Shown: piece after piece, positions 16,235 through 58,311 of the stretch
Layout: every line of letters starts with the position of its first letter
How positions within the stretch are numbered: position 1 is the stretch's first letter
Notes under the pieces: model-generated
The model's database searches: none
What the model was told of the DNA's origin: nothing
Seen by the model: only the letters and a program-made list of their open reading frames with translations
Translations under genes and position numbers: made by a program
Source of the DNA: Pseudomonadota bacterium
GTDB taxonomy: Bacteria; Pseudomonadota; Alphaproteobacteria; Caulobacterales; Hyphomonadaceae
Reading direction: 5' to 3'
Length of the DNA: 64,000 bases
Assembly: GCA_039029475.1 (NCBI GenBank)
Contig: JBCCGB010000011.1
Location: forward strand, 64,264-128,263

Positions 16235-16263
16235 GGTGGGTCAACTAGAAATCTTACGTTGCG

Positions 16264-16854: not shown

Positions 16855-18023
16855 GCTGACATCAGGTTCATGAAGCGCTGAAACAGATAGAAACTGTCTT
16901 GTGGGCCGGGGCTGGCTTCAGGGTGGTGCTGCACGGAAATGATCGGCTTGCCAGCCACTTTCAATCCTGAATTGGTGCCGTCAAACAAAGAGCGATGGCT
17001 CTCCTCGACGCCCGCCGGCAAGCTTTCAGGGTCGACTGTGAAGCCGTGATTCATCGATACAATTTCGACTTTTCCAGTTTCGAGATCTTTCACCGGATGG
17101 TTTGCGCCATGGTGACCCTGGGCCATTTTCATGGTTTTCGCGCCCAATGTCAGAGCCAGCAATTGGTGCCCCAGGCAGATGCCGAGCAGTGGTAACCCGC
17201 TGGCGACCAATGCCTGCAACACGGGCCCGGCGCGCTCATAAGTTGCAGCGGGATCGCCAGGGCCATTCGACAATACCACACCATCTGGATGGAGCGCTTG
17301 TATGGTTTCGAAACTTGTATCGCCATTCACCACGGTCGCGCGCGCGCCGACATCCGCGAGATTTCGCAGAATGTTCTTTTTGACCCCGAAATCGACCACA
17401 ACAACGTGTTTTTGCGGCGTGGTTTGGTCTGTAAAACCGGTGCCGAGCGCCCATAGCCGCTCTGAATGGTCGAACTTTGCGTCGGCATCGACATTTGCCG
17501 CCAGATCCGCCGCTTCCAGACCTTGCCAGGCTTGTGCCGCTTTGATCAAGGCGTCGGTGTCAATTTGCCCGTCCGGGGCATATTGGATGGCACATTTTTG
17601 CATACCTTGTTCGCGTATCAAGCGAGTGAGCGCGCGCGTATCGACGCCAGAAAGGCCAACAATGCCCTTTTTTACGAGCCAGGCGTCGAAATGATCCTCT
17701 GCGCGCCAATTCGAAGGCGGGGTGATGGCGTCCCGAAATACCGTTCCAACGGCGGCTTTTGCAGCATTAACGCTAGATTCTTCGTGATCGTCGGGGTTTG
17801 CGCCGACATTTCCGATATGAGGAAATGTGAACAATACAACTTGTGAGGCATATGACGGATCTGTCAGAATTTCCTGATACCCGGTCATGGCCGTGTTGAA
17901 ACATAGTTCGCCGACAGCAATTCCGACGCTGCCGGTGCCGATTCCGAGGAAAACTGTACCATCTGCAAGGGCCAGGGCACCACTCGCCTGTCTGGTGAAA
18001 TCGGATTGATTTTTGTTGTTCAT
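16851..18023 (-). CDS. carA: Carbamoyl-phosphate synthase small subunit
   Basis: [21 protein letters not shown]; LSNGPGDP; LGICLGHQ; [14 protein letters not shown]. Confidence 0.97.
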
Positions 18024-39959: not shown

Positions 39960-42900
39960 ATGCGGAGAGAAAAGAAGGGCGTATCTTTAAAGAAGATACT
40001 CATTTCAAGCGCAGCTATGGCATCCATGGCAACGGCATTGTCGATGACAGCCACCGCGCAAGACGAAGGCGAAGAAGAAGAAGCAGCGGTTCAGGATACG
40101 ATCGTGATCACCGGATCGCGTATTCCAACAGATCCAAACCTCGCATCTTCAACGCCAGTTCAATCCATCAATGAAGAGCAGATCCGGCTTTCCGGTGAAC
40201 TCAACCTGGCGGATGTCGTGAATGACATTCCAGCTCTGGTGTCTTCATTCACGGGGGCCAACACCCTGACCGACGGCTTTGCCGATATTGACCCAGGTGC
40301 GAACATTCTCAACCTGCGCGGTCTCGGTGGCGACCGGACACTGACTCTGGTCAATGGACGCCGCCATGTGGCCGGTTTCCGCGGCAGCCAGGCGGTTGAT
40401 GTCGGGACGATCCCGCGCGCCCTGGTTCAGAATGTTGAAGTGACAACCGGTGGCGCCTCGGCGATCTACGGTGCCGACGCTGTGACCGGCGTTGTGAACT
40501 TCATCCTCAAGGATGATTTTGAAGGCATGCAGCTGGATGCGCGTGCTGGCATCTCGGGTGAAATGGACGCGGAGAATTTCGCCGTCGATTTGCTCTGGGG
40601 TAAGAATTTCCACGATGATCGCGGTAACGTTGTCGTCGCCTTCACGGTCGAACAGGATTCCGGCATCACCATGGGTGATCGCGACTGGTCGCGTGACAAT
40701 GGCATTGACGAAACTCAGGTCAATCCAGACAGCCTGACCAACCCGAATGCGCCGCCACGTGCCGTGATCCAGGATCCACGCTTCTGGCTGACCTCGCAAG
40801 AAGGATCAATCGCGCCAGGATTTGGCGGACGTTCTGTAACCTATGTCGACATTAACGGAAACGGCATTGCCGACTGTCAGGAATCTGAAGGTGGCCGCGT
40901 TGGCTTCCTCGCAGGCTGCTGGCTGACCAATCCGGACGGAACCGTTCGGGTGAACCAGGATGGCATCGTCCTGAACGGTCTCTGGGGCATTGGGGGTGAC
41001 GGCGGTCGTCTGAACTTCAACCGTGACTCGCTCTATCCGGACACAGATCGCTTCGTGCTCAACGTGAACTCGAATTACGATCTGTCCGACAATATGAGCG
41101 TGTTCTTCGAAGGGAAGTATGTCCACTCGGAATCAACCACGTTCGGCGAGCAGGATTCGTTCTACGATACGCTCGAAATTCGTGCTGATAACGCCTTCAT
41201 TCCGTCGCAACTTCAATCGGTTGCTGATACGGTTGGCTATTTGCTGCTAACGCAGGATCCACTGGATTGGAGCGACAATAACGATTTCACCTATACGCGT
41301 GAGACGTTCCGCTTTGTTGGTGGTCTGGAATGGGAATATGCGCCTGGTCACTTTGCTGAATTTTCTGCCAATTATGGCAAATTCACCAACACTTCGAAGG
41401 AAACCGGCCTGTATCTCGACCGGGTGTTCGCGGCGATCGATTCGGTTGAAGCGCCAGATGGCAGCATCGTCTGTCGCTCTGACCTCGATCCGACGGCAAC
41501 TTACCCGATTGATTATTTCACCGCGGGTAACGGATTCGCAGATGGTGGCTTCTCATCCGATCGCTACTATTCCTTCACACCAGGTGATGGCCAGTGTCAG
41601 CCGCTCAACCCTTTCGGCACCTATTCTGCCAGCGCTGCGGCTCAGAACTTTGTGACATCGCAACTGGAAGACAAGCTTGAGCTTGAGCAGACTGTGATCT
41701 CAGCGATCGCGTTTGGTGAGTTTGATGTGCTTGATTCCCTGCTCGATGGCCCGATTGGTTATGCTGGCGGCGTCGAGTATCGCGATGAGACGAGCTTGAA
41801 CCAGCTTGATCCTCTGACCCTCGGCATCTTGCCGGCGGGCACCTCGTTCACACCGGGTGTTCAGGTCAGCACGGTCGACCCGTTCCTGTTCTCGTTCACC
41901 GACATTGACAACTCGCAGCAATTCAACACGGAAGGTGGCTATGATGTGACCGATGTGTTTGCTGAGGTCAGATTGCCAGTCTTCAAAGACCGTCCGTTCG
42001 CCAAGGAACTCAGCCTCGACGCTGCGATCCGCCTGGCCGATTACTCGACCCTCGGCGATGCGACGACCTGGAAAGTTGGTGGTACCTGGGCACCGATCGA
42101 CGATCTGAGCTTCCGGGCGACCTATTCCGAAGCGGTGCGTGCACCGAACATTTCAGAATTGTTCGACCCGAAATTGCCAATCACGGTTGCTGCGACTGCA
42201 GACCCGTGTGACCCGAGCAATGTCGGAAACGGCTCCGCAGCGCGTCAAGCCAACTGTGTTGCTGGCCTTCAAGCGGCAGGCGTCCCAACCGCAAGCATTC
42301 TAGATGCCGGCGGCAACTATATCTGGACCAACCCGCTGACCGCGCGTTTCTCAGGTGTGTCAGGCGGTAACCCGGATCTCGACGTAGAAACCGCTGAAAC
42401 ACTCACCGTCGGTGCTGTGTATCAGCCGAGCTTCGTGGATGGCCTGTCTATCACGCTCGATTATTGGGACATTGAGATCGAAGATGCGATCGCGGCTGTG
42501 GCCTCTGGCGACATTCTCGATGGCTGTCACGACTCGAGCAACTTCCCGAACCTCGAATTCTGCGGCCTGTTCACACGGCGTGCAGATGGCGGTTTGAACT
42601 TCCTGGAATCAGGACAGATCAACTTCGCGCGTTTGGAAGCGTCTGGTATCGACGTCGCCGTCAACTATAGCTGGGATGTTGGACCAAACACCTTCACAGC
42701 AAGCGTTGTCGGGTCTCAGCAAGAGAAACTGGATCGCTTCTTCAACCCAACCGATCCAACCGATATTGACCCAGAGCTTGAAGAGCTGCGTCTGCCAGAA
42801 TATTCCGGCAACGTCTCTCTCGGATGGGAGCGCGGGCCTTGGCAGGTTGGCGTGCAGACCACGTATCAGAGCCGCCAGAGTGTCGACGAGATCGAAGACG

Positions 42901-43121
42901 TTCTCGGCCTGAACGGAAACTCTGCGCTGTATGGCTCAAATGGCTTCTTCGACGAGACTTACATCTTCGACGTGAATGCCAGCTACGAGCATAGCGACAC
43001 CCTGAGCTTCTATGGTGGCGTCAACAATCTCGGCGACGAGAAGCCGTTCTCGACGGAACTCGCATGGCCAGTTGATCCACGCGGTCGCTTCTTCTTCCTC
43101 GGTGTTACGTTCAAACAGTAA
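39960..43121 (+). CDS. TonB-dependent receptor
   Basis: Signal peptide; TonB box DTIVITGSRI; plug NLRGLGGDRTLTLVNGRR and GGASAIYGADAVTGVVNFILK; C-terminal GRFFFLGVTFKQ. Confidence 0.95.
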   Translation: MRREKKGVSLKKILISSAAMASMATALSMTATAQDEGEEEEAAVQDTIVITGSRIPTDPNLASSTPVQSINEEQIRLSGELNLADVVNDIPALVSSFTGANTLTDGFADIDPGANILNLRGLGGDRTLTLVNGRRHVAGFRGSQAVDVGTIPRALVQNVEVTTGGASAIYGADAVTGVVNFILKDDFEGMQLDARAGISGEMDAENFAVDLLWGKNFHDDRGNVVVAFTVEQDSGITMGDRDWSRDNGIDETQVNPDSLTNPNAPPRAVIQDPRFWLTSQEGSIAPGFGGRSVTYVDINGNGIADCQESEGGRVGFLAGCWLTNPDGTVRVNQDGIVLNGLWGIGGDGGRLNFNRDSLYPDTDRFVLNVNSNYDLSDNMSVFFEGKYVHSESTTFGEQDSFYDTLEIRADNAFIPSQLQSVADTVGYLLLTQDPLDWSDNNDFTYTRETFRFVGGLEWEYAPGHFAEFSANYGKFTNTSKETGLYLDRVFAAIDSVEAPDGSIVCRSDLDPTATYPIDYFTAGNGFADGGFSSDRYYSFTPGDGQCQPLNPFGTYSASAAAQNFVTSQLEDKLELEQTVISAIAFGEFDVLDSLLDGPIGYAGGVEYRDETSLNQLDPLTLGILPAGTSFTPGVQVSTVDPFLFSFTDIDNSQQFNTEGGYDVTDVFAEVRLPVFKDRPFAKELSLDAAIRLADYSTLGDATTWKVGGTWAPIDDLSFRATYSEAVRAPNISELFDPKLPITVAATADPCDPSNVGNGSAARQANCVAGLQAAGVPTASILDAGGNYIWTNPLTARFSGVSGGNPDLDVETAETLTVGAVYQPSFVDGLSITLDYWDIEIEDAIAAVASGDILDGCHDSSNFPNLEFCGLFTRRADGGLNFLESGQINFARLEASGIDVAVNYSWDVGPNTFTASVVGSQQEKLDRFFNPTDPTDIDPELEELRLPEYSGNVSLGWERGPWQVGVQTTYQSRQSVDEIEDVLGLNGNSALYGSNGFFDETYIFDVNASYEHSDTLSFYGGVNNLGDEKPFSTELAWPVDPRGRFFFLGVTFKQ

Positions 43122-43143
43122 GACCAGAGAAGATCTGAACTGG

Positions 43144-43169
43144 AATGCGGAGGCGAAAGCCTCCGCATT
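43144..43169 (+). terminator. Terminator-like hairpin between the receptor and the sulfotransferase
   Basis: AATGCGGAGGC-GAAA-GCCTCCGCATT followed by TCTTGTT. Confidence 0.75.
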
Positions 43170-43187
43170 TCTTGTTATGGGGATAAG

Positions 43188-45002
43188 ATGAGCAGTCACA
43201 GCCAGCACGAAACCATCTTGCAGGAGGTCGAGCGTCTCGTCGCAGATCGGAATTTTGCGGCGGCGGTTGCCCGACTTAAAGGCACGTTGAAAGCCGATCC
43301 GCAATTTTTTCAGGGCTGGCTTCGGTTGAGCAAGATCCTGTTCGAGACGGAGAATTATCGAGAGGCGGTGCAGGTCGGACAGGCCGCGGAGCGGTTTGAT
43401 CCACTGCAAGCCGAATTTCGCACCATTCAGTCGCATATGCAGTCACGGGCCTTTGGTCCTGCCGAGCAAGTTGCCAAGCAAATGCTGGCGAAACAGCCCG
43501 GCCACCCGCGCGCCGTGTTCACGATTGCGGAAATATCTGGGATGAAAAACTATCCCGAAGGGCGGGTCGAAGCGTTGCGGCACGGCCTGGATTATGGCCC
43601 GGCAAACCTGGTGCTCCGCAACATGTTGATCAGCGCACTCGAACAAGCGGGCGACTTTCAGGGCGCGATCGATGAGGCCCGGATCCTTGTCCAGACGGAA
43701 GACTCCTTCAACGCGCTTTGGTCGCTGGTCAGCGTCTTGTTGCGACATGGCCGGAATGACGAATTGCTGGCGGTTTGTGATCGCGCCGAACAACAGAGCG
43801 GGGCGGACAAGACCAAGCTGAGTCAGATCGACCTGGTTCGCGGCCAGATTCTACGCGTCCTGGGACGCCGGGACGAGAGCGTGGCGGCGTATCGGAAATG
43901 TCTCGAAAACAATCCGAGCAATGCCGGCGCCTGGTGGGCTCTGGCGGACATGAAGACGTTTGCGTTTTCGAGCGCCGACAGTGCGGCCATCCGATCGCTT
44001 CTGGACACGCCAACCTTGCCGCAACCAGAGCGATGCGTCGCGACATTTGCGCTGGCAAAAGCAAGTGAATCCGAAGGCGATTGGGATCAGACGTTCGCGC
44101 TGTATCACGCGGCAAATGCACTGCACCCCAATGCGGCTTACAATCCGGCGATTTTTGACGAAGAAGTGGCGTCTCGTATTGCCGGCTTTGATCAGGCTGC
44201 GCTGGCGACCCAGGCCATTCCTCGGCCAGAAGGACCGACCCCGATTTTCATTCTCGGCCTGCCGCGGTCCGGGTCGACCTTGATCGAACAGATCCTGGCC
44301 AGTCATTCTGAGATTGAGGGCACAATTGAACAACCAGTCATGCCGAGCATTGCGCGTAAGGCACACGTCAAATGTACGCTCGAACATCAAGGTGGCTTAT
44401 TGCAGAAAGTCGGCGCCTTAACGCCGCAAGACCTCGCGGGACTTGGGCAGGCCTATCTCGATGATGGCGGATTGTTTCGCACCGGAGAGACAGAGTTTTT
44501 CACCGATAAGCTGCCCTTCAATTTCCGCCATATCGGCTTGATCCACAAAGTCCTGCCAAATGCGATCATTATAGATGCGCGGCGCAATCCGATGGATTGT
44601 GGGCTCAGCCTGTACAAGCAGCATTTCCCGACCGGCGTGGAGTTCAGCTATGGGCTTCAGCACATCGCTGACTTCTATGTCGGCTATCTGAAACTGATGG
44701 ACTATTGGCACGCGGCGCTGCCAGGCCGGGTCCTGACGCTGCAATACGAACATCTGATCCGCGATCCCGAAGCTAAGATTCGCGAATTGCTGTCACATAT
44801 TGGCGTCGCGTTTGAACCCGCCTGCCTTAATTTTCACAAGACCGAACGCGCCGTTCGCACAGCCAGCAGTGAGCAGGTGCGGCAACCGATCAATACGCGC
44901 GGCATCGGCGCCTGGCGCCAGGTCGAAGAGCATCTGGCCCCGCTCAAGGCTGGCCTCGGCGCTGACGTGTATGCGCGGTTTGAGGGCCTTTACGACGCCT
45001 AG
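43188..45002 (+). CDS. TPR-repeat-containing sulfotransferase
   Basis: N-terminal TPR-like helices; PAPS 5'-phosphosulfate loop GLPRSGSTLIEQIL; DKLPFNF; RRNPMD; VRTASSEQVRQPI. Confidence 0.92.
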   Translation: MSSHSQHETILQEVERLVADRNFAAAVARLKGTLKADPQFFQGWLRLSKILFETENYREAVQVGQAAERFDPLQAEFRTIQSHMQSRAFGPAEQVAKQMLAKQPGHPRAVFTIAEISGMKNYPEGRVEALRHGLDYGPANLVLRNMLISALEQAGDFQGAIDEARILVQTEDSFNALWSLVSVLLRHGRNDELLAVCDRAEQQSGADKTKLSQIDLVRGQILRVLGRRDESVAAYRKCLENNPSNAGAWWALADMKTFAFSSADSAAIRSLLDTPTLPQPERCVATFALAKASESEGDWDQTFALYHAANALHPNAAYNPAIFDEEVASRIAGFDQAALATQAIPRPEGPTPIFILGLPRSGSTLIEQILASHSEIEGTIEQPVMPSIARKAHVKCTLEHQGGLLQKVGALTPQDLAGLGQAYLDDGGLFRTGETEFFTDKLPFNFRHIGLIHKVLPNAIIIDARRNPMDCGLSLYKQHFPTGVEFSYGLQHIADFYVGYLKLMDYWHAALPGRVLTLQYEHLIRDPEAKIRELLSHIGVAFEPACLNFHKTERAVRTASSEQVRQPINTRGIGAWRQVEEHLAPLKAGLGADVYARFEGLYDA

Positions 45003-46288
45003 TTGCTGATCTCATCGAGATGGATGACGCCGTCTTTCATCACAAAATCGACGTCTTCGAGCTCGCTGATATCATCGAGCGGATCGCCTTCGACAGCGAT
45101 CAGGTCAGCAGCTTTGCCAACCGTGATCGAACCAATTTCGTCTTCAATACCAAACAGCGTGGCATTGCTGAGCGTGGCGGTCTGAATGGCCTGCATGGGC
45201 GACATGCCCCATTCGACCATTTTCGAGAATTGGCGGGCATTGGTGCCATGCGGATAGACGCCGGCATCACTGCCAAAAGCCATATTCACGCCGGCTCTGT
45301 GTGCCGCCTGGAAGCGCTCGCGCTGAACCCGGCCCACCATTCGTTCCTTGGCCAGGGACTCTTCGAGAATGCCTGCCGCTTCGCCTTCCGACAGGATATA
45401 GTCAGAGACATAGATATCCATGGACAGATAGGTGCCTTGTTCGACCGCCTGAGCGATGCTGTCATCCGTGATCATGCTGGCATGTTCAACCGAATCCACG
45501 CCGGCTTCGATTGCTGATTGAATGCCGCGCGGGCCATGCGCGTGCACCGCGACTTTCAGATCAAGCAGACGCGCTTCATCAACAATCGCTTTCATTTCTT
45601 CCAGCGAATATTGCTGAGCATTGATCGAGGTGTTCGGGGACAGGACCCCGCCGGTGCCGCAGAATTTGATCACCCGCGCACCGTATTTCTTGTTCTCGCG
45701 AACTCTCTGCCGGACTTCCCAGGGCCCATCCGCACGTCCGCCCGTGCGCACTTGTGCTTCATAAGGCAGCAGCGTGGCGTCGCCGCAATGGCCGCCGGTA
45801 ATCCCAATCGATTGACCCGCGCCGATAATGCGCGGCCCGATAATCTCGCCTTCGGCAATGGCTTTCATCAAATCAATATCTGTAAAGCCCGGTGCACCAA
45901 GATTTCGCACCGTCGTGAAACCGGCAAGCAACGTCGTTTCGGCATTGACGACGCCACTAATCGCGGCACGCGAGGTTGACCGTGTGAGCCGGCGGAAGCC
46001 ATGCACATTGGCGCCAGACGTCAGATGCACGTGGCTGTCTGACAGGCCCGGCATCAGCGTCGCGCCGGACAGGTCAATTTCCGTCCATTGGCCATCTGGT
46101 AAACGGCGTTCGGAGCCAATATAGGCAATCTTGTCGCCTTCGATGGCGACGACCTGGCCGCGGATCACTTTGCCATTTTCGACATCGACAATATCGGCGC
46201 CTTTGAGCACCGTGCCCGGCGTGGCACTGGCAACCCCAATGGCGGCGAAGGCCGCACTCATAGCGGTTAGAATAGGTTTCAAATTCAT
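44999..46288 (-). CDS. Exported metal-dependent amidohydrolase (Xaa-Pro dipeptidase / M38-like)
   Basis: Signal peptide; PGLSDSHVHL; IKFCGTGGV; AVHAHG; VEHAS; FGSDAGVYPHG. Confidence 0.88.
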   Translation of the reverse strand: MNLKPILTAMSAAFAAIGVASATPGTVLKGADIVDVENGKVIRGQVVAIEGDKIAYIGSERRLPDGQWTEIDLSGATLMPGLSDSHVHLTSGANVHGFRRLTRSTSRAAISGVVNAETTLLAGFTTVRNLGAPGFTDIDLMKAIAEGEIIGPRIIGAGQSIGITGGHCGDATLLPYEAQVRTGGRADGPWEVRQRVRENKKYGARVIKFCGTGGVLSPNTSINAQQYSLEEMKAIVDEARLLDLKVAVHAHGPRGIQSAIEAGVDSVEHASMITDDSIAQAVEQGTYLSMDIYVSDYILSEGEAAGILEESLAKERMVGRVQRERFQAAHRAGVNMAFGSDAGVYPHGTNARQFSKMVEWGMSPMQAIQTATLSNATLFGIEDEIGSITVGKAADLIAVEGDPLDDISELEDVDFVMKDGVIHLDEISN

Positions 46289-46344
46289 GGTCGGTCCCAA
46301 CTCCCAATTTGGCACTTCCAGACCGTAAGGCATAAAGCGCAGCG

Positions 46345-47436
46345 CTAGTTTGGCAATCTTTCCAGGGGGATATAATCGAGATCAAATCCGAAATGTCGTG
46401 GACTGACGGCTTTCAGGGCGTCGGGGCTGCGATAGAAATCCGGGCAACCGATCGCAAAGATGGCGACCCGCTGTCCATAGCGCAGGCGTTCCGCATTAAT
46501 CGGTTCTGACGTTTCATAATCGACGATAATGATCAGGTCCGGCACCGAGGCGAGCACCTGATCGCCGCGCCGGGCCAGCAAATATTCATTCTTGATATCG
46601 ATTTCGACCGCAGGGGATCCGGCCTCAAACCCTTCGACAATGGTGTTGCCGACATCGAAACCACCCACAATTCGGGTCGACTTGTCGACCACTTTCCCAG
46701 TGTGAATGAGACGGCATTCGCCATAGATCGAATCCTCGATCAAAGCTTTGAGCGGATCAAAGAGCGCGGTCGCCTGGCCGCGATTCTCGCGCAGAAATGT
46801 GCCGAGTTTGAGTGCGAAACTGACGGTTCCAGGGATGAGCGCGTTTTTCAAGACGGCGCCGGTCATGCCATGTTCGACGGTGGTGATCATGCCACCCGAG
46901 CTCATCGCCAGGGCGCGAATATGGCGTTCATAGACCTCTGTCCCCTTGGTCGTGAACAGCGTGACATTGCTGGCATAGTCGCAGGCCATTGCGGGTGTCG
47001 AGGGAATGCCGCGAATGGCATAGGTCATCATCTGTGCTTCTGGCAGTGCGCGCCCCATGCCATCGCCGTCGACCACAGGGATGCCGCGGCTGGCCGCTGC
47101 CATGATCGGGATCAGCGAATTGCCGCCGCCAATCTCGAATGACACGACGGCATCGAGCTTGCGTCCCATCTGCGTTTCAAACGCTTCCAGGGCAATCAGG
47201 GCTTCATCATCCGAGGGCAATAGCTCGAGACTGACCGTTGGCGCGCCGACATTGCCGATCGCCGCTACAAAGGCATCGTCAGGAATGTCTTCAGGTTGTA
47301 GCAAATCGACCGGGCCTGTTCGCTTTAGCACTTCGCGTGTCAGCAGCTTTGGTACGTGAGGATCGCCGCCACCGCCGGTGGCCAGGAAGACTGATCCCAA
47401 AGCGAGGTCGTCGAGATGTTGTGCACCGAGTTTCAT
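46345..47436 (-). CDS. DUF917-family protein
   Basis: GSVFLATGGGGDP; EIGGGNS; DGDGMGRALPE; KNEYLLA; SVPDLII; LRYGQRV; ATGA-coupled to the hydantoinase. Confidence 0.9.
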   Translation of the reverse strand: MKLGAQHLDDLALGSVFLATGGGGDPHVPKLLTREVLKRTGPVDLLQPEDIPDDAFVAAIGNVGAPTVSLELLPSDDEALIALEAFETQMGRKLDAVVSFEIGGGNSLIPIMAAASRGIPVVDGDGMGRALPEAQMMTYAIRGIPSTPAMACDYASNVTLFTTKGTEVYERHIRALAMSSGGMITTVEHGMTGAVLKNALIPGTVSFALKLGTFLRENRGQATALFDPLKALIEDSIYGECRLIHTGKVVDKSTRIVGGFDVGNTIVEGFEAGSPAVEIDIKNEYLLARRGDQVLASVPDLIIIVDYETSEPINAERLRYGQRVAIFAIGCPDFYRSPDALKAVSPRHFGFDLDYIPLERLPN

Positions 47437-48992
47437 GCTTTGCCTCCCGTCGATGGCATGGCCAGGTCGCCAATGACTTTGACGCGAACCCGCATCGTAT
47501 CCTGGCCCATATAGGGCACTTCGGTTTCTTCTATGTCGACAATGCGCAAGCTCTCCTGCGTCGCGCCGGCGCCGAGCGCGCGGGCTTCAGCTTCCTGGCT
47601 GAGCTCGGCAATGGCAGTCTCGCGCGGCAGCGATTGATAAGACACAATCTTCTCGCTCTCGCCGCCGACTTGCGCGATGGCTGCACCAATCGCATTTGCG
47701 ACGCCGGCATGTTCCGGGCGGTGAACCTTGCTCGCTGCTTGCAAGTCACCGGTGACCAGGATGGCGCCGCCGCCGACCAGAATGACCGGCATCTGTACCG
47801 CGCCGGGCTTCATCATGTCGATGCCGCGATCAAGAATCGTCAACATGTTCTGACGCGCCGTTTCAACCATCTCTGGCGCCAGCCCTGCAACTGCTGCGGT
47901 GTCGCCAATATCTTGATGGCCGCTGGCCACAACAATGTCTGTTGCCGTCAGGGTGGTGCCGCCAAAGACCAGGCCGTGTGTGGTCAGGCGATGCCCGACT
48001 GATTGCGGGCCAAGTGTGCTGCCATCGGCGCTGACCAGACTGCCGCCGCCCAGCCCAATGGCCTGAATGTCCGGCATACGAAAATTGGTCCGCACGCCGC
48101 CAACTTCGATCACCGAGTTTGATTCACGCGGGAACCCACCCTGCAGGACACCAATGTCTGACGTGGTGCCGCCAATATCGACGACGATGGCATCTTCCAA
48201 GCCGGTCAACAGCATCGCGCCGCGCAGGGAATTGGTTGGTCCGGAGGCGAAAGTCAGGGCCGGAAAGGCGCGCACGAAGTCAGCGCTCATCAACGTCCCG
48301 TCATTCTGACTGATGAAGACCGGGCAAGACAGATTTCGAACGCGCATTGCATCGAGGAAGGCCGAGACAACGGAATCAGCAAATTGCAATAGCGTAGCGT
48401 TCAGCACAGACGCGTTTTCACGTTCCATCAGACCAAGACGACCAAAGCTCTGCGAACAGGTAATGTGCGCATCCGGAATGGCTTGCTTGATCCGTTTGGC
48501 GAGGATCTGTTCCGGCTCTGCATTCATCGGTGAAAAGGCCGAGGCCACAGCGAAATTTTTCAGACCTTTGGATTTTGCGTCGGCAATGGCTTTGTCAATT
48601 TCAGCGTCGTCCATCGCCGCGACCGGCCAGCCATCGTAAAGATAGCCGCCGTGCAAAGCATAGGCATGGCGGCCGACCGCGTCAGCAATGTCATCCGGCC
48701 AGTCGACCATTGGCGGCAGGCCGCGCCCGGCCGGAAGGCAAAGACGAAACACGCCGGTTTCGGCGAGCTGTCGACGCTCGACAATCGCATTGGTGAACTG
48801 GGTCGTGCCGATCATCACGGACTGGATGTCATCGCTTGGCAGTCCGCTATCGTTCAGCACGGTGTCGAGCGCATTGGCGACGCCTTCCATCACGTCCGCG
48901 CTGGTCAGCACTTTGGTCGATGTGATGACGGTGTTGCCGTCCATGATCACAGCGTCCGTGTGCGTGCCGCCAACATCAATTCCGATCCGCAT
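47433..48992 (-). CDS. Hydantoinase/oxoprolinase A-subunit-like ATP-dependent enzyme (HyuA)
   Basis: IGIDVGGTHTD; RENASVLNA; SQNDGTL; ASGPTNSLRGA; DIGGTTSDIG; GLGGGS; ANAIGAA. Confidence 0.9.
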   Translation of the reverse strand: MRIGIDVGGTHTDAVIMDGNTVITSTKVLTSADVMEGVANALDTVLNDSGLPSDDIQSVMIGTTQFTNAIVERRQLAETGVFRLCLPAGRGLPPMVDWPDDIADAVGRHAYALHGGYLYDGWPVAAMDDAEIDKAIADAKSKGLKNFAVASAFSPMNAEPEQILAKRIKQAIPDAHITCSQSFGRLGLMERENASVLNATLLQFADSVVSAFLDAMRVRNLSCPVFISQNDGTLMSADFVRAFPALTFASGPTNSLRGAMLLTGLEDAIVVDIGGTTSDIGVLQGGFPRESNSVIEVGGVRTNFRMPDIQAIGLGGGSLVSADGSTLGPQSVGHRLTTHGLVFGGTTLTATDIVVASGHQDIGDTAAVAGLAPEMVETARQNMLTILDRGIDMMKPGAVQMPVILVGGGAILVTGDLQAASKVHRPEHAGVANAIGAAIAQVGGESEKIVSYQSLPRETAIAELSQEAEARALGAGATQESLRIVDIEETEVPYMGQDTMRVRVKVIGDLAMPSTGGKA

Positions 48993-48995
48993 GGT

Positions 48996-50288
48996 TTAAC
49001 TCTCTTCTGGGGTGGTCCGGGACAGCCGCGCCGCGATCCAGCTTAGCGCGAGATAGCTGATCGCGGTGAGAACGATCGCGTCAATCGCTTCGATCTTGCT
49101 CGGGGATTGCAGGAGCCCCCAATACATCAGCAAGGAAACGGCCGCGCCGATGAACCAGGCGCAAAACGCAATCGGTGCAAACTTGCGGTTACCTTCCAAT
49201 TGCTCAATCCGATATGCGTCCCGGCGGACAAACAGATAGTCGGTGATCACAATGCCAGCGACCGGAATGAAGATGATCGACAAATAGATCAGGAATACGA
49301 CAAATATATCGAGCAAGTTCAGCATCGCGGCGCCAGCGCCAAAAATGCCGAGGCCGATAATGAGCAGGCTGCGATTGAGGGTTGGAAATGTCGCCTTGAT
49401 CGACAACACCGTCGAATAAAGATTCAGCGCATTGAGCACCCAGCTGCCAGCAATGACGATAATAAAGGCGCCGAGGCCGAGTCCGAATTGCAGCATGATG
49501 TCGATAATATCGTGCGACCCGGTGGCGGCGCCGGCCAGACTGGCAGACGCCATGACGAGGAATTGGACAATCATATAAGAGACAAAGGTCACACCCATTG
49601 CTCCACGCCAGCCTCTGACAAAACGCGTAATGTCCGGCAGAATAATGGCGCCAATAATGATCGCGCCGACAATTGCTGAAATGCCGCCGCCTAAGGTTAG
49701 CGTCACCTCTTTCTCCGCTGCCATCATCTCTGGCAAAGGCTGCATGTTGAGCGCGCTATAAGCGAGGATCACGGTGACGATGGCGAGCACAGGTACCATT
49801 AATGTGGCGAGCACATTGATGGCGCGGAAGCCGGCAAATGTAACCCCGGTCATGCACGCCGCCGCGATCAGAGACAGACTCAAATCAGATGGCGCCGCAC
49901 CGAACAATGTCTGGCTTAATCCCGACACCGCGTCGGCAAACAGATTGATATTGATTCCGAACCAACCGAGCAGCGAGATCGCAAAGGCAAGATTGACCAG
50001 ACCGGCGCCATGATCGCCGAACGCAATACGGGTCAGCAAATACGAACTCATGCGGGTTTCAGAGCCGATCCCGCCCATCGCCGTGCCAATGCCGAATATC
50101 AAAACGCATCCGATCAGCAAGGCCCAGACGGTCTGCCACGGCGTCAGCCCTTGATAGACTTCAAGCCCAGTAATGAAGGTTGGCAGCGAGAACGCCACCA
50201 TTGATCCGACCGCGGCGACGCGCCACCACGGTGTCAGCTGATCATCGCGGATCGCGACAGCTTCGAATTCACTGTTTAAGTCGCTCAT
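48996..50288 (-). CDS. Cytosine/purine permease (NCS1/CodB-like)
   Basis: About 12 TMs; IGSETRMSSYLLTRIAFGDHG; LLGWFGINI; PDITRF; NALNLYS; PVAGIVITDY. Confidence 0.88.
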   Translation of the reverse strand: MSDLNSEFEAVAIRDDQLTPWWRVAAVGSMVAFSLPTFITGLEVYQGLTPWQTVWALLIGCVLIFGIGTAMGGIGSETRMSSYLLTRIAFGDHGAGLVNLAFAISLLGWFGININLFADAVSGLSQTLFGAAPSDLSLSLIAAACMTGVTFAGFRAINVLATLMVPVLAIVTVILAYSALNMQPLPEMMAAEKEVTLTLGGGISAIVGAIIIGAIILPDITRFVRGWRGAMGVTFVSYMIVQFLVMASASLAGAATGSHDIIDIMLQFGLGLGAFIIVIAGSWVLNALNLYSTVLSIKATFPTLNRSLLIIGLGIFGAGAAMLNLLDIFVVFLIYLSIIFIPVAGIVITDYLFVRRDAYRIEQLEGNRKFAPIAFCAWFIGAAVSLLMYWGLLQSPSKIEAIDAIVLTAISYLALSWIAARLSRTTPEES

Positions 50289-50363: not shown

Positions 50364-52472
50364 TTACCAGATCCGCACACGATCTTCCGGTGCGATATAC
50401 ATTTCGTCGCCGGGCTGAACATCAAACGCTTCATACCATTCATCAATATTGCGGATCATGCCATTGACGCGCAGCTTCATCGGGCTGTGCGGCGCCGAAA
50501 GCAGACGTTGGCGCAACGATTCTTCTGTGCGGGTATAGCGCCGGGCCTGGGCCCGTCCGAGAAATACGCGCTGCTCGCCGGTAAAGCCATCCAGGACCGG
50601 TGACGGCGCGCCATTCAGCGACAATTTGTAAGCGTGATAGGTGACAATGATCCCCGCCAGATCACCAATATTCTCGCCCAGGGTCTGACGCCCATTCACG
50701 TTCAATCCGGGCAAAGGCTCATATTCGCTGAATTGATCGGCAAGCCGGTCGCCGAGGGCATCGAAGGCGGCGCGATCTTCTTCTGTCCACCAGCTCTGCA
50801 GGAAGCCATTGGCGTCAAATTTCGATCCTTGATCATCAAAGCCATGTCCGATCTCGTGACCGACAATCGACCCGATGGCCCCATAATTGATCGCCGGATC
50901 GGCATTCGGATCAAATAGCGGCGACTGGATATAGCCCGCGGGAATGAATGCCTCATTGCGATTGGGGCTGTAAAAGGCATTGACCGTTTGGGGGGCAGAA
51001 AACCATTCGCGTTTGTCGACTTTGGTGCCGAGGCGGGCGGCCTGGCGCGCGCTCGACCAGACGCGATGCCGCCGAATATTGCCGAACAGATCGCCCGGGA
51101 CGATGTCGAGATCGCTGTAATCGGTCCAAACTTCCGGATAAGCAATCTTGGCCGTCATGGCGGCAAGTTTTTCCTGGGCGCGGATTTTCGTCTCATCCGT
51201 CATCCAGTCGAGATTGTCGATCCGGATCGACAAAGCGGTTCGAATGTTTTCGAACATCTCGGTCATCTGGACTTTGCTTTCTTCCGGAAAATATCGATCG
51301 ATATATTCCCGGCCGACGGCCTGATCGAGGCGGCCATTGACGAGATTGATGCCGCGTTTTTCCCGTGCACGCGGGGCCTGTTGGCCGCGCAGCTTCTGGC
51401 CGTAGAATTCGAAATTGGCCATATAGACATCATCGGACAACCAGGCGGCATTGCTCGAGACGAGGCGGGTCAGCAAATAATCCTGCCAGACATTTACCGG
51501 CGTCTCCGCAAACAGCTCGGCCAGGGCCGGAAAAGCGTCCTTTTCGCGGAGCACGATATCGCCCTCCGTCGGCAAGCCATTGGCTTCAAAAGCGGCGGAC
51601 CAGGTCATGCCCGGGGCAAAATCCTGCAACTCGGAAAGACTCATGCGATTGTAAGTGCGATCCGCATTGCGTCGATCAGCGCGTGTCCAGTGCAGCTCGG
51701 CCATCGCCGTCTCGAGCGCAAACACCGCGTCGGCGCGGGCGGCACTGTCCGCTTCGTTCAAAGTCTCCAGCATCCGGGCAAGATGGGTCTTGTAAGCGTC
51801 CCGGGTTTCCACCAGGCGTTCGGATTCGCGCAAATAATAAGACCGATCTGGCATGCCGAGCCCGGCATGGGTCGCGCCCATGACATAGGAATCCGGTTGC
51901 TTGGAATCGATGGTCACATAAATCGCGACCGGCCCGCCAAGGCCAAGTGCCGGGTTGGCCATCAGACGCAGAATATCCTCATGCGTCTCGGCCGCCTGAA
52001 CTTCGGCAATATCCGCCATGATCGGCGTTAGGCCTTGTTCATTGATCCGCTCCAGATCCATGAAATCATTATAGAGATCGCGAATTTTCTGGCTGTTTGA
52101 TCCAGGTTCAACCTCGGCTGTGGAGAGATCTGCAATGATGTCAGCGATCCGCGCTTCATTGCGTTCCTGCATGATGATGGAAAAGCCGGTCCCGGACCGG
52201 TCTGACGGGATTTCCGTTGCCGCCAGCCAGCCGCCATTGGCATATTGGAAAAAATCGTCGCCGGGCTTTGTCGTCGGATCAAACGCATCCATCGGATAGC
52301 CCCAGGGCGCGATCATCGGCGTCTCGATGATCGCGGTCTCAGCTGCGGGTTCGGCGTCTTGCGGTCCGGTTGCAGTGGAGGGCGGGCTGCAGGCCGCCAT
52401 CGCCAGGACGGCCAGGCTGGGAATAACAGAGCGAAGGCGCAGGGCGCGTAAGCGAATCATGGAAAGCCTCAT
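50364..52472 (-). CDS. M13-family (neprilysin/PepO-like) metalloendopeptidase, lipoprotein
   Basis: Lipobox MAAC; PGDDFFQYANGGW; VNAFYSP; VGHEIGHGFDDQG (HExxH); GENIGDLAG; PHSP. Start at 52460 or 52472. Confidence 0.95.
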   Translation of the reverse strand: MRLSMIRLRALRLRSVIPSLAVLAMAACSPPSTATGPQDAEPAAETAIIETPMIAPWGYPMDAFDPTTKPGDDFFQYANGGWLAATEIPSDRSGTGFSIIMQERNEARIADIIADLSTAEVEPGSNSQKIRDLYNDFMDLERINEQGLTPIMADIAEVQAAETHEDILRLMANPALGLGGPVAIYVTIDSKQPDSYVMGATHAGLGMPDRSYYLRESERLVETRDAYKTHLARMLETLNEADSAARADAVFALETAMAELHWTRADRRNADRTYNRMSLSELQDFAPGMTWSAAFEANGLPTEGDIVLREKDAFPALAELFAETPVNVWQDYLLTRLVSSNAAWLSDDVYMANFEFYGQKLRGQQAPRAREKRGINLVNGRLDQAVGREYIDRYFPEESKVQMTEMFENIRTALSIRIDNLDWMTDETKIRAQEKLAAMTAKIAYPEVWTDYSDLDIVPGDLFGNIRRHRVWSSARQAARLGTKVDKREWFSAPQTVNAFYSPNRNEAFIPAGYIQSPLFDPNADPAINYGAIGSIVGHEIGHGFDDQGSKFDANGFLQSWWTEEDRAAFDALGDRLADQFSEYEPLPGLNVNGRQTLGENIGDLAGIIVTYHAYKLSLNGAPSPVLDGFTGEQRVFLGRAQARRYTRTEESLRQRLLSAPHSPMKLRVNGMIRNIDEWYEAFDVQPGDEMYIAPEDRVRIW

Positions 52473-52594
52473 ATCGTTTTACGATACAAAACCTGACAGC
52501 TGGGCGATGGTCAAGCCAGGACGGTGGCAATCTTGTGCGCCGACGGGACGAGACCGGGCGGCCCGGGGCGTGGCGCTGTCTGTATCAGGAAAAG

Positions 52595-52671
52595 TGGCGC
52601 TTCGGGGAGGATTCGAACCCCCGACCCCTTGGTTCGTAGCCAAGTACTCTATCCAACTGAGCTACCGAAGC
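52595..52671 (-). tRNA. tRNA-Arg(ACG)
   Basis: Reverse complement folds as a 77-nt cloverleaf: GCTTCGG acceptor, D-arm GCTC-AGTTGGATA-GAGT, anticodon arm CTTGG-CTACGAA-CCAAG, T-arm GGGGG-TTCGAAT-CCTCC, encoded CCA. Confidence 0.97.
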
Positions 52672-52729
52672 GCGGAAGCGGGACACATACTCTCGGCAAT
52701 CGGCGAAAGCAACACCTGATATCAGGAAA

Positions 52730-53710
52730 TTACTGTGCCTCATGCACGCCGCGCGCAATCGCCCTTGCCAGCGTGTTGGCGGATAATTCTCCCAGCCTGG
52801 CGAGGGCGAGCGGGCCTGGATCAGGCAACGGACGCTGCGCTGTCGACAGAACGAAGACGACATCGCCATCAAATGGCGCAAAGACCGGCCGAATTGCCCG
52901 GGCCATCCCGGCCAGCGCCATCTGCGCCACGCGTTTGGCCTGTCCGGGGGTCAGTTCGACATCTGTGGCGATGCAGGCAATGGTCGTATTTTCGCCGACA
53001 TGCGGGTTCTGCTTGGCGGCGCCCCAGTCTTCAGCATCAGCTGAATAGGTGGCGGGCGGGCGCTGGCCGCCAAATTCGCCATCAATTTCATAGGGCCAGG
53101 CCCAGAAGGCGTCTGTGCCAGGCATGTAGACCGACCCGAAACTGTTCACCGCCACCAGCGCGCCGACGCTCAATCCGTCAGAGCTGACGATCGACGCCGA
53201 CCCCAGGCCGCCGGCATGTTGCCCTGCACGGGCGCCAAAGCCCGCGCCCGCGGCGCCGAGGTCAATTCGGCCATCATTCGCAGCGGCCAAGGCCGTCCGT
53301 CCGAGTTCATGATAGGGCGGCGTATCGCCCCAATTCTTGTCGCCGCCATTGGCCAGATCATACAGGATCGCGGCCGGCACGATGGGAGTCTTCGGGACAT
53401 CGGGGCGCTCGGTCATCGCAAACCCCCGTCCTCGTGCGCCAAGCCGGGCGGCGACGCCATCGGCGGCGGCCAGGCCATAAGCGCTGCCGCCGGATAGAAC
53501 CACCGCATCGACATGTTCGACCAGCTTGTCAGAGTCCAGCAAATCGCTCTCGCGTGTGCCGGGACCACCGCCGGCAACCGCAACCGCGCCAATGCAGGGC
53601 GCCGCGCCCAGAATGACCGTGGTGCCGGTTTTCGCAACGGCATCCTGCGCGTTTCCGACCTGAATCCCTGCAATATCGGTGATCAGGTTGTTTTTACCGG
53701 GTTCGGACAT
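52730..53710 (-). CDS. P1-family peptidase (DmpA/S58-like, self-processing)
   Basis: NLITDIAGIQVG; GGGPGTRESD; VLSGGSAYGLAAA; VPAAILYDL; GENTTIACIATD; RAIRPVFAPFDGD. ATG at 53710. Confidence 0.9.
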   Translation of the reverse strand: MSEPGKNNLITDIAGIQVGNAQDAVAKTGTTVILGAAPCIGAVAVAGGGPGTRESDLLDSDKLVEHVDAVVLSGGSAYGLAAADGVAARLGARGRGFAMTERPDVPKTPIVPAAILYDLANGGDKNWGDTPPYHELGRTALAAANDGRIDLGAAGAGFGARAGQHAGGLGSASIVSSDGLSVGALVAVNSFGSVYMPGTDAFWAWPYEIDGEFGGQRPPATYSADAEDWGAAKQNPHVGENTTIACIATDVELTPGQAKRVAQMALAGMARAIRPVFAPFDGDVVFVLSTAQRPLPDPGPLALARLGELSANTLARAIARGVHEAQ

Positions 53711-53783
53711 TGAAAGGCCTTTCCTGCCACTGGCATCCGCTCTACGGTGCGAAGATGAATTCGCCAAGTCGGAGCGCTATTGA

Positions 53784-55553
53784 ATGTCAGTCAAATCTAT
53801 CTTGATCACGGGGGCATCTGCTTTGATGCTGGTGGCTTGTCAGGCCCAGGATGATCCCACCTCGATCGAAGTGCCGGAACCGCCGATCGAAGAATCACAA
53901 GCGGATTGGAGCAAAGGCGCGATGGTCGCCGCAGCAGACCCACGGGCCGTCGCGGCCGGCTTGGCGGTCTTGCGCAATGGCGGACATGCGGTTGATGCAG
54001 CGATTGCCGTGCACACCGTTCTCGGTCTCGTCGAACCGCAATCATCGGGCATTGGCGGAGGCGCCTTCATGGTCGTCTATGATCGTGCCAGTGGCGACAC
54101 GACGGTGTTTGACGGACGTGAAACAGCCCCCTCTGCTGCAGACGAAAATCTGTTCATCGAAGATGGCGAAGTGCTGGGCTTTATTGATGCCTGGCAGTCA
54201 GGCAAGTCGGCCGGCGTTCCCGGTGCGATCGCGCTCTATAAAGCCGCGCACGATACGTATGGCCGCAACGAATGGGCGAGCAATTTCGAGGCCGCGATTG
54301 ATCTTGCAGAAACCGGCTTTGTGGTCAGCCCGCGTCTCGCTCAGGTTTTGGCCAATGATCGCCTTCGGCAATTTGTCAGGCTCGATGATCATCCCGTCAG
54401 TGCCGCCTATTTCTATCCGGAGGGGGAACCGCTGGCCGACGGCGCAGTGCGGGACAATCCGGATTATGCTGAGACCTTGCGCCGGGTTGCGACCGAAGGA
54501 ACAGACGCCTTCTACAAAGGCGAAATTCCCGCTGCGATCGCCGCCACGATCGCGGAAGCGCCGCGCCCGGGGGCGCTGAGCGTTGAGGATATTGAATCCT
54601 ATGAAGTCAAAGTTCGCCCGCCGCTGTGTGGGGCCTGGCGAGATTATCGTATTTGTTCCGCGCCGCCGCCAAGTTCGGGCGGTATCACACAAAACTCCAT
54701 TGCCGGTCTTTATGACCGCCTGGTGCCAGACGGAGCAACCGAGCCGGACGTGTTGATGCGCGCTTTCGTCGATGCCCAGAGATTGGCTTATGCCGACCGC
54801 GATCACTATGTTGCAGATGCTGATTTTGTGCAGGTGCCGAGCCTGGATTTGATCAATCCCAAATATCTTGATGTGCGCGCCACGGAAGTGTTTGAGCCGG
54901 GTGCGACGCCAATGCCGGGCGACCCAGGCGTGGTCTTGGGGGGCAATCCCATGGTCGGCATGTGGGGCCAGGATCCGACGGAAGACGCCCCGGGCACCAC
55001 GCATCTCTCAATCATTGATGCCGACGGCAATGCGGTGGCGATGACAGCGACCATCGAAGCCGCATTTGGTAATTCCCGGATGGTGCACGGCTTTTTGTTG
55101 AACAATGAGTTGACCGATTTTGCCCGCCAACCGCGCAAATCCAATTTGCCGGTGGCCAACGCGCCGGGCCCGAAGAAGCGTCCGCGCAGTTCGATGTCAC
55201 CGACCATCATTTTCGATGCCGACGGTGACGTGAAAATGGTCACGGGATCGCCTGGCGGCAATTCAATCGTCGCTTATACCGCGAAGTCGATTATCGGCGT
55301 GCTGGACTGGGAAAAGACCCCACAAGAAGCGGTCGCTTTGCCAAACATTATCGCCCGCGGTGAGATGGTTGGGGTCGAGGTGGACCGAGACGGTGGTCAA
55401 GAGGTTGCGGATAAGCTGAAAGCGCTCGGCTATAACGTTGAGGAGCGACGCGGCGAGAATAGCGGTCTGCACGTCATCCTGGTCACAGAAGATGGCTTGC
55501 TCGGCGGCGCCGATCCGCGTCGCGAAGGCGTTGCGACGGCATTGGCTGAATAA
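53784..55553 (+). CDS. ggt: Gamma-glutamyltransferase family lipoprotein
   Basis: Lipobox LVAC; GGHAVDAAIA; EPQSSGIGGG; DGRETAP; GTTHLSIID (nucleophilic Thr); RPRSSMSP; GSPGG; ADPRREG. Confidence 0.93.
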   Translation: MSVKSILITGASALMLVACQAQDDPTSIEVPEPPIEESQADWSKGAMVAAADPRAVAAGLAVLRNGGHAVDAAIAVHTVLGLVEPQSSGIGGGAFMVVYDRASGDTTVFDGRETAPSAADENLFIEDGEVLGFIDAWQSGKSAGVPGAIALYKAAHDTYGRNEWASNFEAAIDLAETGFVVSPRLAQVLANDRLRQFVRLDDHPVSAAYFYPEGEPLADGAVRDNPDYAETLRRVATEGTDAFYKGEIPAAIAATIAEAPRPGALSVEDIESYEVKVRPPLCGAWRDYRICSAPPPSSGGITQNSIAGLYDRLVPDGATEPDVLMRAFVDAQRLAYADRDHYVADADFVQVPSLDLINPKYLDVRATEVFEPGATPMPGDPGVVLGGNPMVGMWGQDPTEDAPGTTHLSIIDADGNAVAMTATIEAAFGNSRMVHGFLLNNELTDFARQPRKSNLPVANAPGPKKRPRSSMSPTIIFDADGDVKMVTGSPGGNSIVAYTAKSIIGVLDWEKTPQEAVALPNIIARGEMVGVEVDRDGGQEVADKLKALGYNVEERRGENSGLHVILVTEDGLLGGADPRREGVATALAE

Positions 55554-55651
55554 TCCGCGGCCGGGTGATGGTGCACTTGGCAAAAGACAAATTTGATGGA
55601 TGACCGACAGGCCGAATGCCTGCCGTGATGGGGAGAGTGAAATTGACTTTC

Positions 55652-58279: not shown

Positions 58280-58311
58280 TGCGCTTGGAAAAAACCGATA
58301 GGAGAAGCGCT

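Follow-up and report, generated by a model that had tools for sequence, protein, structure and literature searches.

A short HyuA-type ATPase and a DUF917 protein form a conserved three-gene unit with an NCS1 permease, a candidate system for ATP-dependent opening of imported cyclic amides

Introduction

The ATP-dependent hydrolases of lactams and hydantoins are described as enzymes of two parts, A and B. In the mechanism proposed for one of them, caprolactamase, a phospho- or carboxy-lactim is made in CapA and hydrolysed in CapB, and two phosphate motifs, P1 (DxGGTxTD) and P2 (DxGGT), have been defined for this enzyme and its relatives (PMC8453981). Here we analyse a block of four minus-strand genes at positions 44999–50288 of a 64,000-nucleotide stretch of contig JBCCGB010000011.1 (this whole stretch is called the window below), in which a short HyuA-type ATPase is encoded together with an NCS1-family permease, a DUF917 protein and an amidohydrolase. 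Judged by its closest relatives, the host is Henriciella-like (Hyphomonadaceae). The first three genes form a conserved unit in which DUF917 occupies the partner position that is held elsewhere by HyuB.

Results

The permease, HyuA and DUF917 genes form a conserved unit

The four genes are closely spaced (Table 1), with 3 bp between the permease and HyuA genes and a 4-bp overlap between the HyuA stop and the DUF917 start. The gap between DUF917 and the amidohydrolase is 11 bp for the longest open reading frame (ORF) of the latter and 56 bp if translation begins at Met16 (position 46288). An earlier note on this DNA, made from the letters alone, had described the same four gene positions, 3-bp gap and 4-bp overlap, and its 56-bp gap holds with the Met16 start, which opens a signal peptide. 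The two HyuA motifs that it had read, DVGGTHTD and DIGGTTSD, are both present in the protein. It had also found no HyuB gene in the window, and the same is true of the whole 3.48-Mb genome (29 contigs, 98.95% complete), where a Pfam search gave no match to HyuB (PF02538) and one copy each of HyuA and DUF917.

Orthologues of the window's DUF917 (58–95% identical) were collected from species-representative genomes, giving 80 loci that span Hyphomonadaceae, Kordiimonas, Parvularculaceae, Maricaulis, Erythrobacter, Alteromonadaceae, Pseudohongiella, Woeseiaceae, Lysobacterales, Halieaceae and Acidimicrobiales. In 79 of these loci the gene immediately upstream of DUF917 is HyuA, and the arrangement is therefore not a matter of chance; the permease is present in 74. 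All three genes are thus kept together in ~75 of the 80 loci, which belong to marine Alpha- and Gammaproteobacteria and Acidimicrobiia. A stricter gene-cluster count, over the 63 loci outside the Henriciella clade, gave the permease in 48 and a divergent AsnC/Lrp regulator in 26, and the only other common neighbours were a TonB-dependent receptor (17 loci) and a sulfotransferase with tetratricopeptide repeats (TPR; 13 loci). The regulator matches only generic Lrp models and has no orthologue in the window's genome, where the best score is 54 bits compared with 192–375 bits in the loci. Since the amidohydrolase is limited to one lineage and the M13 peptidase gene on the other side of the block occurs in no related locus, the conserved unit consists of three genes (NCS1 permease, HyuA and DUF917) and not four.

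In a maximum-likelihood tree, the window DUF917 falls within a marine clade with 100/100 support on a long stem. In a library clustered at 50% identity, a single full-length sequence (62% identical) stands for this clade, and the nearest full-length relative beyond it shares 44%. The DUF917 proteins of the unit form a tight marine orthologous clade, and the amidohydrolase and M13 genes are add-ons to the unit. Two Acidimicrobiales loci (L071 and L080), with DUF917 and HyuA ~62% identical to those of the window, are nested inside a gammaproteobacterial sub-clade. Both retain the AsnC regulator and carry a Dpp/Opp-type ATP-binding cassette (ABC) importer (SBP_bac_5, BPD_transp_1, and ABC_tran with oligo_HPY) in place of the permease. 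This nesting implies transfer between phyla with replacement of the NCS1 permease by a Dpp-type ABC importer. L071 also has an AMP-binding (acyl-CoA-ligase-like) gene just upstream of HyuA.

HyuA pairs with either DUF917 or HyuB

The absence of HyuB rests on genome-level Pfam searches of the window's own genome and of 41 related genomes, and these relatives also served as the sample for partner exclusivity. Of these relatives, 12 encode a strong DUF917, in each case next to a HyuA of ~520 aa and without any HyuB. Another 12 encode HyuB; DUF917 is missing from every one of them, and their HyuA is either a long protein (688 aa) or part of a HyuB fusion (~1250 aa). A further three have a distant standalone DUF917 and no HyuA. 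The mutual exclusion of HyuB and DUF917 across the 41 relatives (Fisher p = 0.008) is confounded by phylogeny, and within the genus it is not significant (P ~0.07, hand calculation). The pattern supports exclusivity of partners only, and not functional equivalence with 5-oxoprolinase. The standalone DUF917 proteins of some congeners (G002:C2:92164-92649, equivalent to L090 7916-9271, and those of G015, G016 and G395), found in genomes without HyuA, are ~450 aa long with an N-terminal extension and score 42 bits with the S-Me-THD model; the neighbourhood of the G002/L090 gene held no functional clue.

The two proteins also occur as one. A search with the window's HyuA and DUF917 joined end to end as the query returned ~100 natural single-chain fusions of 900–1060 aa that contain PF05378, PF01968, PF06032 and PF20906, with the domains in the order of the genes in the window. 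The fusions come from ascomycetes, basidiomycetes, trebouxiophyte algae, amphioxus, molluscs, a brittle star, a nemertean, a priapulid, amoebae and some prokaryotic contigs. The statement in the earlier note that DUF917 recurrently co-occurs or fuses with HyuA is thus borne out both by these proteins and by the adjacency in the orthologous loci. A 2715-aa protein with a DUF917 segment at residues 613–958 (P0363) is far above the usual fusion size.

For a wider sample we used a species-level set of 401 Pseudomonadota genomes, 30 of which have DUF917, and fetched 26 loci for a neighbourhood census with all six-frame ORFs. Ten of these loci have a high-scoring DUF917 adjacent to HyuA, 15 have a standalone DUF917, and one is a fragment. 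The 15 standalone proteins form separate long-branch clades in the maximum-likelihood tree. Some loci have more than one DUF917 per ATPase: L095 (4585-13677) has four DUF917 paralogues to a single short HyuA, with a Dpp-type ABC importer at the same locus, and L104, L091 and L097 have two DUF917 genes each. Several DUF917 proteins per ATPase may reflect hetero-oligomers or a range of substrates.

HyuA is a short ATPase with intact phosphate motifs

HyuA matches PF05378 and PF01968, the latter only over positions 1–174 of 291, and has no Pfam match to Hydant_A_C. Its closest sequence matches in the PDB are N-methylhydantoinase (7hk5), caprolactamase (6yra) and the ATP subunits of acetone and acetophenone carboxylase. 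The P1 motif (DVGGTHTD, residue 6) and the P2 motif (DIGGTTSD, residue 272) are invariant in 77 orthologues, so it is very probable that HyuA binds nucleotide as an active enzyme and represents a short subtype of its own. It lacks the adenosine motif GxxPGP, in place of which an invariant VGGGA is found at positions 406–410. Weak Pfam and NCBIfam matches are to BcrAD_BadFG, MutL/GlmL and acyl-CoA dehydratase activase.

DUF917 has the fold of CV_3147 and not that of HyuB

The window DUF917 scores 173.9 bits with PF06032 and 179.8 bits with PF20906 (gathering cut-off 27). Its AlphaFold2 model has a predicted local distance difference test score (pLDDT) of 93.6, and the sole fold match to this model found by Foldseek in the PDB is CV_3147 (2o3i; template modelling score, TM, 0.82; E 8e-26). 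The invariant polar residues of the DUF917 alignment are E71, E101, N106, D125, R129, D153, E170, R174, K248, N283 and E284, and a GGGG loop is invariant as well. The earlier note had stated, correctly, that some DUF917 members are linked to thiohydantoin desulfuration: two NCBIfam models, NF058529 and NF058532, carry desulfurase names, and the window protein scores 90.6 against a cut-off of 440 and 105.5 against a cut-off of 450 with them. The literature that we found on DUF917/PF06032 consists of passing mentions, and searches on thiohydantoin desulfurase, ergothioneine-thiohydantoin and thiourocanate hydratase gave nothing usable.

An AlphaFold2 model of a prokaryotic fusion (P0126), which is 43% identical to the joined query over 99% of its length, has a pLDDT of 86.7 and a predicted TM score (pTM) of 0.84, with a disordered linker at residues 513–530. 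The pTM suggests a defined packing of the HyuA and DUF917 modules. For the DUF917 half of this model, Foldseek finds CV_3147 (2o3i) as the single match, and for the HyuA half it finds ATP subunits, namely those of N-methylhydantoinase, caprolactamase and the two carboxylases (acetone and acetophenone).

Importers encoded with the HyuA-coupled pairs

The permease belongs to the NCS1 family (PF02133, 70.9 bits), and its best PDB match is CodB (7qoa). The cytosine-binding side chains of CodB are Gln105, Trp108 and Phe204, and the second aromatic of this set is described as conserved across the NCS1 family (PMC9379551). In all 71 orthologues of the window permease, Trp108 is kept, the Gln105 position is Leu and the Phe204 position is Ile or Val. 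With these two residues lost, and with a score of 142.7 against a cut-off of 326 on the cytosine permease model NF008241, identification as a cytosine permease was rejected. Loss of the second aromatic hints at a substrate with a non-planar, non-aromatic ring.

Each HyuA-coupled pair that we examined comes with an importer, which is an NCS1 permease, a Dpp/Opp-type ABC system or a TonB-dependent receptor. In the 401-genome sample, ABC-importer genes accompany seven of the ten HyuA-coupled loci, five with a full Dpp set and two with a DppD-like ATPase only. In L091/L092 (9001-11442, protein P0189), a DppF-type ABC ATPase (ABC_tran and oligo_HPY) is itself fused to a short HyuA, within an operon of SBP_bac_5, DppB, DppC, DppD, the DppF–HyuA fusion and two DUF917 genes. 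Importer–HyuA fusions are also represented by P0178 and P0129, and one such fusion, of 962 aa, joins an NCS1 permease to HyuA; an importer and an enzyme in one chain are unusual. Just downstream of the Dpp–HyuA–DUF917 operon of L092, a metagenomic contig, positions 15001-17986 hold an unrelated group of a CBASS-like pair (SAVED/Saf_2TM effector and DncV-like nucleotidyltransferase), an M78 peptidase and helix-turn-helix (HTH) genes.

Genes around the unit

The genes of the unit and its surroundings are listed in Table 1. The amidohydrolase scores 557.3 against a cut-off of 500 with NF051886 ('Xaa-Pro dipeptidase', Caulobacter type), and its PDB matches, 3be7 (E 7e-124) and 3mtw (Cc2672; E 1e-113), are Zn-dependent L-Arg carboxypeptidases. 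Met16 opens a typical Sec signal peptide (MNLKPILTAMSAAFAAIGVASA). Because of this signal peptide and the L-Arg carboxypeptidase relatives, the protein is predicted to be an exported peptidase for linear peptides, of the Cc2672/Sgx9260 type, and a periplasmic location would not fit a step after cytoplasmic HyuA–DUF917. The gene is missing from 4–5 of the ~16 Henriciella-clade loci, including L009, L012, L020 and L023. No terminator is found in the 56-bp gap, and GGGAG precedes the amidohydrolase ATG. We read the gene as a lineage-specific neighbour and later add-on, possibly co-transcribed with the unit and not part of its core. The earlier note had treated all four genes as one operon, which does not hold for a protein that carries an export signal and whose gene is absent from all 63 loci outside the Henriciella clade. 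The amidohydrolase and sulfotransferase genes are convergent, and their stops overlap by 4 bp (44999-45002).

Table 1. Coordinates of the three-gene unit and neighbouring genes in the window
Feature	Position	Strand	Length	Domains and remarks
TonB-dependent receptor	39960..43121	+	1053 aa	Plug and TonB_dep_Rec_b-barrel domains
TPR-sulfotransferase	43188..45002	+		PF13469 and TPR repeats; cytoplasmic
Amidohydrolase	44999..46333 (longest ORF); 44999..46288 (from Met16)	-	444 aa (longest ORF)	PF01979
DUF917 / S-Me-THD protein	46345..47436	-	363 aa	PF06032 and PF20906
Short HyuA-type ASKHA ATPase	47433..48992	-	519 aa	PF05378 and partial PF01968
NCS1-family permease	48996..50288	-	430 aa	PF02133; first gene of the conserved three-gene unit
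Peptide-processing run	50364-60330			M13 lipoprotein, S58 (DmpA-type) aminopeptidase, GGT lipoprotein, M14, S9
M14 carboxypeptidase	55616-58279		887 aa	signal peptide
S9 prolyl-oligopeptidase-family protein	58105-60330

Exported enzymes of peptide degradation (M13, GGT, M14 and S9) are unusually numerous in the window, and the S58 aminopeptidase is cytoplasmic. GGT and S58 are kept beside the unit only within the genus. What lies between S58 and the permease varies: M13 is there in none of the related loci, and in congeners the slot is either empty or filled by an unrelated 663-aa lipoprotein on the other strand.

The sulfotransferase has a GLPRSGST loop and no signal peptide, and is one of two TPR-sulfotransferase paralogues in the window's genome. 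A strong hairpin (43142-43171) lies between the TonB receptor gene and the sulfotransferase gene. Such a sulfotransferase adjoins the unit in most Henriciella loci as well as in the 13 of 63 loci counted above, and is its immediate neighbour in Parvularculaceae, Paraglaciecola, Glaciecola, Lysobacterales, Woeseiaceae and Halieaceae; the chance expectation is ~1% by a rough hand estimate (~18 genes per locus, two paralogues among ~3,300 genes). The flanking sulfotransferases are ~25–35% identical between lineages, compared with 60–67% for DUF917. Adjacency of the TonB receptor (17 of 63), taken alone, is at about the chance level for receptor-rich marine genomes, and the informative evidence for the receptor is therefore limited to the sulfotransferase enrichment and the in-operon cases, namely L096, L100 and L101, where a receptor on the same strand lies directly beside the genes of the unit. 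The link between the receptor–sulfotransferase pair and the unit is recurrent and not obligate, because sulfotransferase orthologues also occur in congeners that lack the unit. We read the receptor as a likely candidate for the outer-membrane uptake step of the same substrate.

Discussion

A candidate two-part, ATP-dependent ring-opening system

We consider it somewhat probable that the unit is a three-gene uptake-and-processing operon for ATP-dependent, two-part ring opening of an imported cyclic amide. The NCS1 permease would import a small, probably non-aromatic heterocycle, and HyuA would spend ATP on activating it, by analogy with the HyuA/HyuB enzymes most likely by phosphorylation of the lactam or ureide oxygen to give a lactim or isourea phosphate. 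Displacement of the phosphate, with opening of the ring, would fall to DUF917. The product would probably be an ordinary metabolite, such as a dipeptide or an amino acid, since the operon has no other dedicated enzyme as a conserved companion. In the named DUF917 enzymes, judged from their NCBIfam names, a thiol or methylthiol on a thiohydantoin carbon is replaced by oxygen. That these enzymes act on a good leaving group and occur without an ATPase fits the idea that ATP would be needed only where the substrate lacks one.

Several points weigh against this proposal. No invariant histidine is found in the DUF917 alignment, so the Asp-His-Asp-His metal site of HyuB is absent, and Foldseek gave no match of DUF917 to a HyuB-type fold even though such structures are in the library. 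For both reasons, the suggestion that DUF917 replaces the B subunit, made in the earlier note, rests on position and not on homology: it stands as a partnership, given the mutual exclusion in the 41 genomes, and implies no common descent. DUF917 would thus stand in the place of HyuB as a non-homologous replacement, if it is a replacement at all. The predicted interface in the fusion model is indirect. Standalone DUF917 proteins occur without any HyuA, and the named members of the family are desulfurases that likewise occur without an ATPase, so that DUF917 chemistry does not in principle need ATP. The short HyuA resembles activase-type ATPases of the acetate and sugar kinase/Hsc70/actin (ASKHA) superfamily, through its weak BcrAD_BadFG and MutL/GlmL matches. 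The clues to the substrate are circumstantial, as opines, nickel and sugars are also among the ligands of family-5 binding proteins, and the arginase-family neighbours at two loci point elsewhere. Finally, our literature search found no biochemical study of a HyuA-coupled DUF917 and no report of its substrate.

Candidate substrates

On this circumstantial evidence, the substrate is most likely a peptide-derived cyclic amide, with a 2,5-diketopiperazine as the first candidate and a pyroglutamyl peptide or a hydantoin-like ring as alternatives. The earlier note had reached peptide-derived rings through the peptidase genes of the window, a weak argument given that M13 occurs in no related locus and that GGT and S58 stay with the unit in one genus only. 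The idea itself draws independent support from other lineages, through the Dpp/Opp importers, the DppF–HyuA fusion, and M19, M20 and M24 peptidase genes near HyuA–DUF917 in L093, L100, L091 and L097. A published survey reports DUF917 to be over-represented in gene clusters with a cyclodipeptide oxidase and no cyclodipeptide synthase (bioRxiv 10.1101/2023.09.25.559410). Diketopiperazines are cleaved neither by peptidases nor by D-hydantoinases, and the enzymes that do so have been reported as unknown (PMC3852281). The more specific proposal, that HyuA–DUF917 is an ATP-dependent 2,5-diketopiperazine hydrolase, fed in marine bacteria by a TonB receptor and then an NCS1 or Dpp-type importer and present as a single fused enzyme in fungi, green algae and marine invertebrates, is tentative, and we regard it as doubtful in this exact form.

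Arginase-family genes lie beside HyuA–DUF917 in two unrelated loci (L096 11497-13538 and L093 2286-6125), one of which also has an ornithine cyclodeaminase gene and the other genes for an M19 dipeptidase and a class-III aminotransferase. Together with the L-Arg-carboxypeptidase-like amidohydrolase, these neighbours may hint at an arginine- or guanidino-containing substrate. A cyclic guanidino-lactam resembling creatinine or glycocyamidine is a minor possibility, as the arginase-family, ornithine cyclodeaminase and Creatinase_N/M24 neighbours occur in only two or three loci.

Alternative explanations

In the GlmL/MutL and HgdC/BcrAD types of ASKHA ATPase, nucleotide use serves activation of another protein, and the short HyuA could in the same way be an ATP-driven activase or chaperone of a DUF917 that does all the chemistry. 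The weak matches to BcrAD_BadFG, MutL/GlmL and acyl-CoA dehydratase activase would suit this role, as would the 2-hydroxyacyl-CoA dehydratase activators among the remote Foldseek matches and the DUF917 enzymes that work without an ATPase. We nevertheless judge it unlikely, because the best sequence and fold matches are, by many orders of magnitude, substrate-activating A subunits (N-methylhydantoinase, caprolactamase and the carboxylases), and because a strict 1:1 fusion, as found in eukaryotes, is more easily reconciled with a catalytic subunit needed in stoichiometric amounts than with an activator that acts catalytically. Carboxylases belong to this ATPase superfamily too, and the DUF917 chemistry implied by the NCBIfam names is a substitution (C=S or C-SMe to C=O) on an sp2 carbon of the ring and not ring opening; both would be compatible with a non-hydrolytic ATP-dependent reaction on the imported ring, such as carboxylation, amination or ligation through a phospho-imidate, or isomerisation. 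This seems quite unlikely beside an importer at every locus examined, a biosynthetic context at none, and a minimal three-gene operon that suggests a product entering central metabolism directly.

A pathway of four members, in which the amidohydrolase would use as its substrate either the ring or what HyuA–DUF917 makes by opening it, is very unlikely. The terminator-free 56-bp gap with its GGGAG, the abundance of peptidases in the window, and the non-homologous dipeptidases (M19, M20 and M24) near the pairs of other lineages speak for such a pathway; the signal peptide, however, puts the enzyme in the periplasm, away from the cytoplasmic HyuA and DUF917, the characterised proteins closest to it are peptidases for linear Xaa-Arg/Lys or Xaa-Pro substrates, and the unit is found without it both in four named Henriciella-clade loci and in every outside locus. 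Least probable of all, and by our estimate highly improbable, is a desulfurase-like DUF917 for breakdown of thiohistidines (ergothioneine or ovothiol), or a salvage operon for a nucleobase or vitamin precursor. The family takes its name from such desulfurases and the permease is of the NCS1 CodB/CytX type, but the window protein falls far short of both desulfurase cut-offs, a long stem of its own leads to the clade, whose next relatives are 44% identical, the permease has lost cytosine-binding residues, and no hydantoinase or carbamoylase lies nearby in the window. Two-part opening of a cyclic amide by HyuA and DUF917 remains the reading that we prefer.

Significance

An A-type ATPase with an unrelated partner is conserved here from marine bacteria to fungi, algae and amphioxus. 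Knowing its substrate would give a function to a large part of the DUF917 family (~3,600 clusters at 50% identity), and if that substrate is a diketopiperazine it would fill a gap in the degradation of abundant and very stable compounds (PMC3852281). The marine clade offers a good experimental entry, with a minimal operon, highly conserved proteins and cultured strains that carry the unit, among them Paraglaciecola marina, Kordiimonas aquimaris, Alteromonas aestuariivivens and Parahaliea.

Comparison with known systems

Classical hyu clusters with the NCS1 permease Mhp1 resemble the window in encoding an NCS1 importer together with enzymes for small cyclic amides. They differ in their other genes: the window amidohydrolase scores 28.7 against a cut-off of 393 on the D-hydantoinase model TIGR02033, and the racemase and carbamoylase of classical clusters are absent among the genes at 33.6–63.5 kb of the window. 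Pairs of a TonB receptor and a TPR-sulfotransferase form a further point of comparison, with the genes at 39960-45002 making up one such pair, which lies beside the unit here and in several orders. The thiohydantoin and S-methyl-thiohydantoin desulfurases and the structural-genomics protein CV_3147 have both Pfam domains of the window DUF917 and its fold (TM 0.82), and share with it Glu101, a DxDxxGR motif and the GGGG loop, whereas the window protein lies far under the equivalog cut-offs and in a separate clade that always has a HyuA partner.

The HyuA/HyuB enzymes, which include CapAB (6yra), N-methylhydantoinase (7hk5/9h03), 5-oxoprolinase and the acetone and acetophenone carboxylases, have a homologous ATPase subunit with P1 and P2 intact, and as in the window this subunit is encoded with a fixed partner and sometimes fused to it. 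In contrast to those of ~690 aa, the window ATPase has 519 aa and is without the C-terminal part of PF01968, Hydant_A_C and GxxPGP, and its partner is DUF917, with another fold and without the Asp-His-Asp-His site. By analogy, the logic that the window pair would be expected to share with these enzymes is activation of a stable cyclic amide by ATP.

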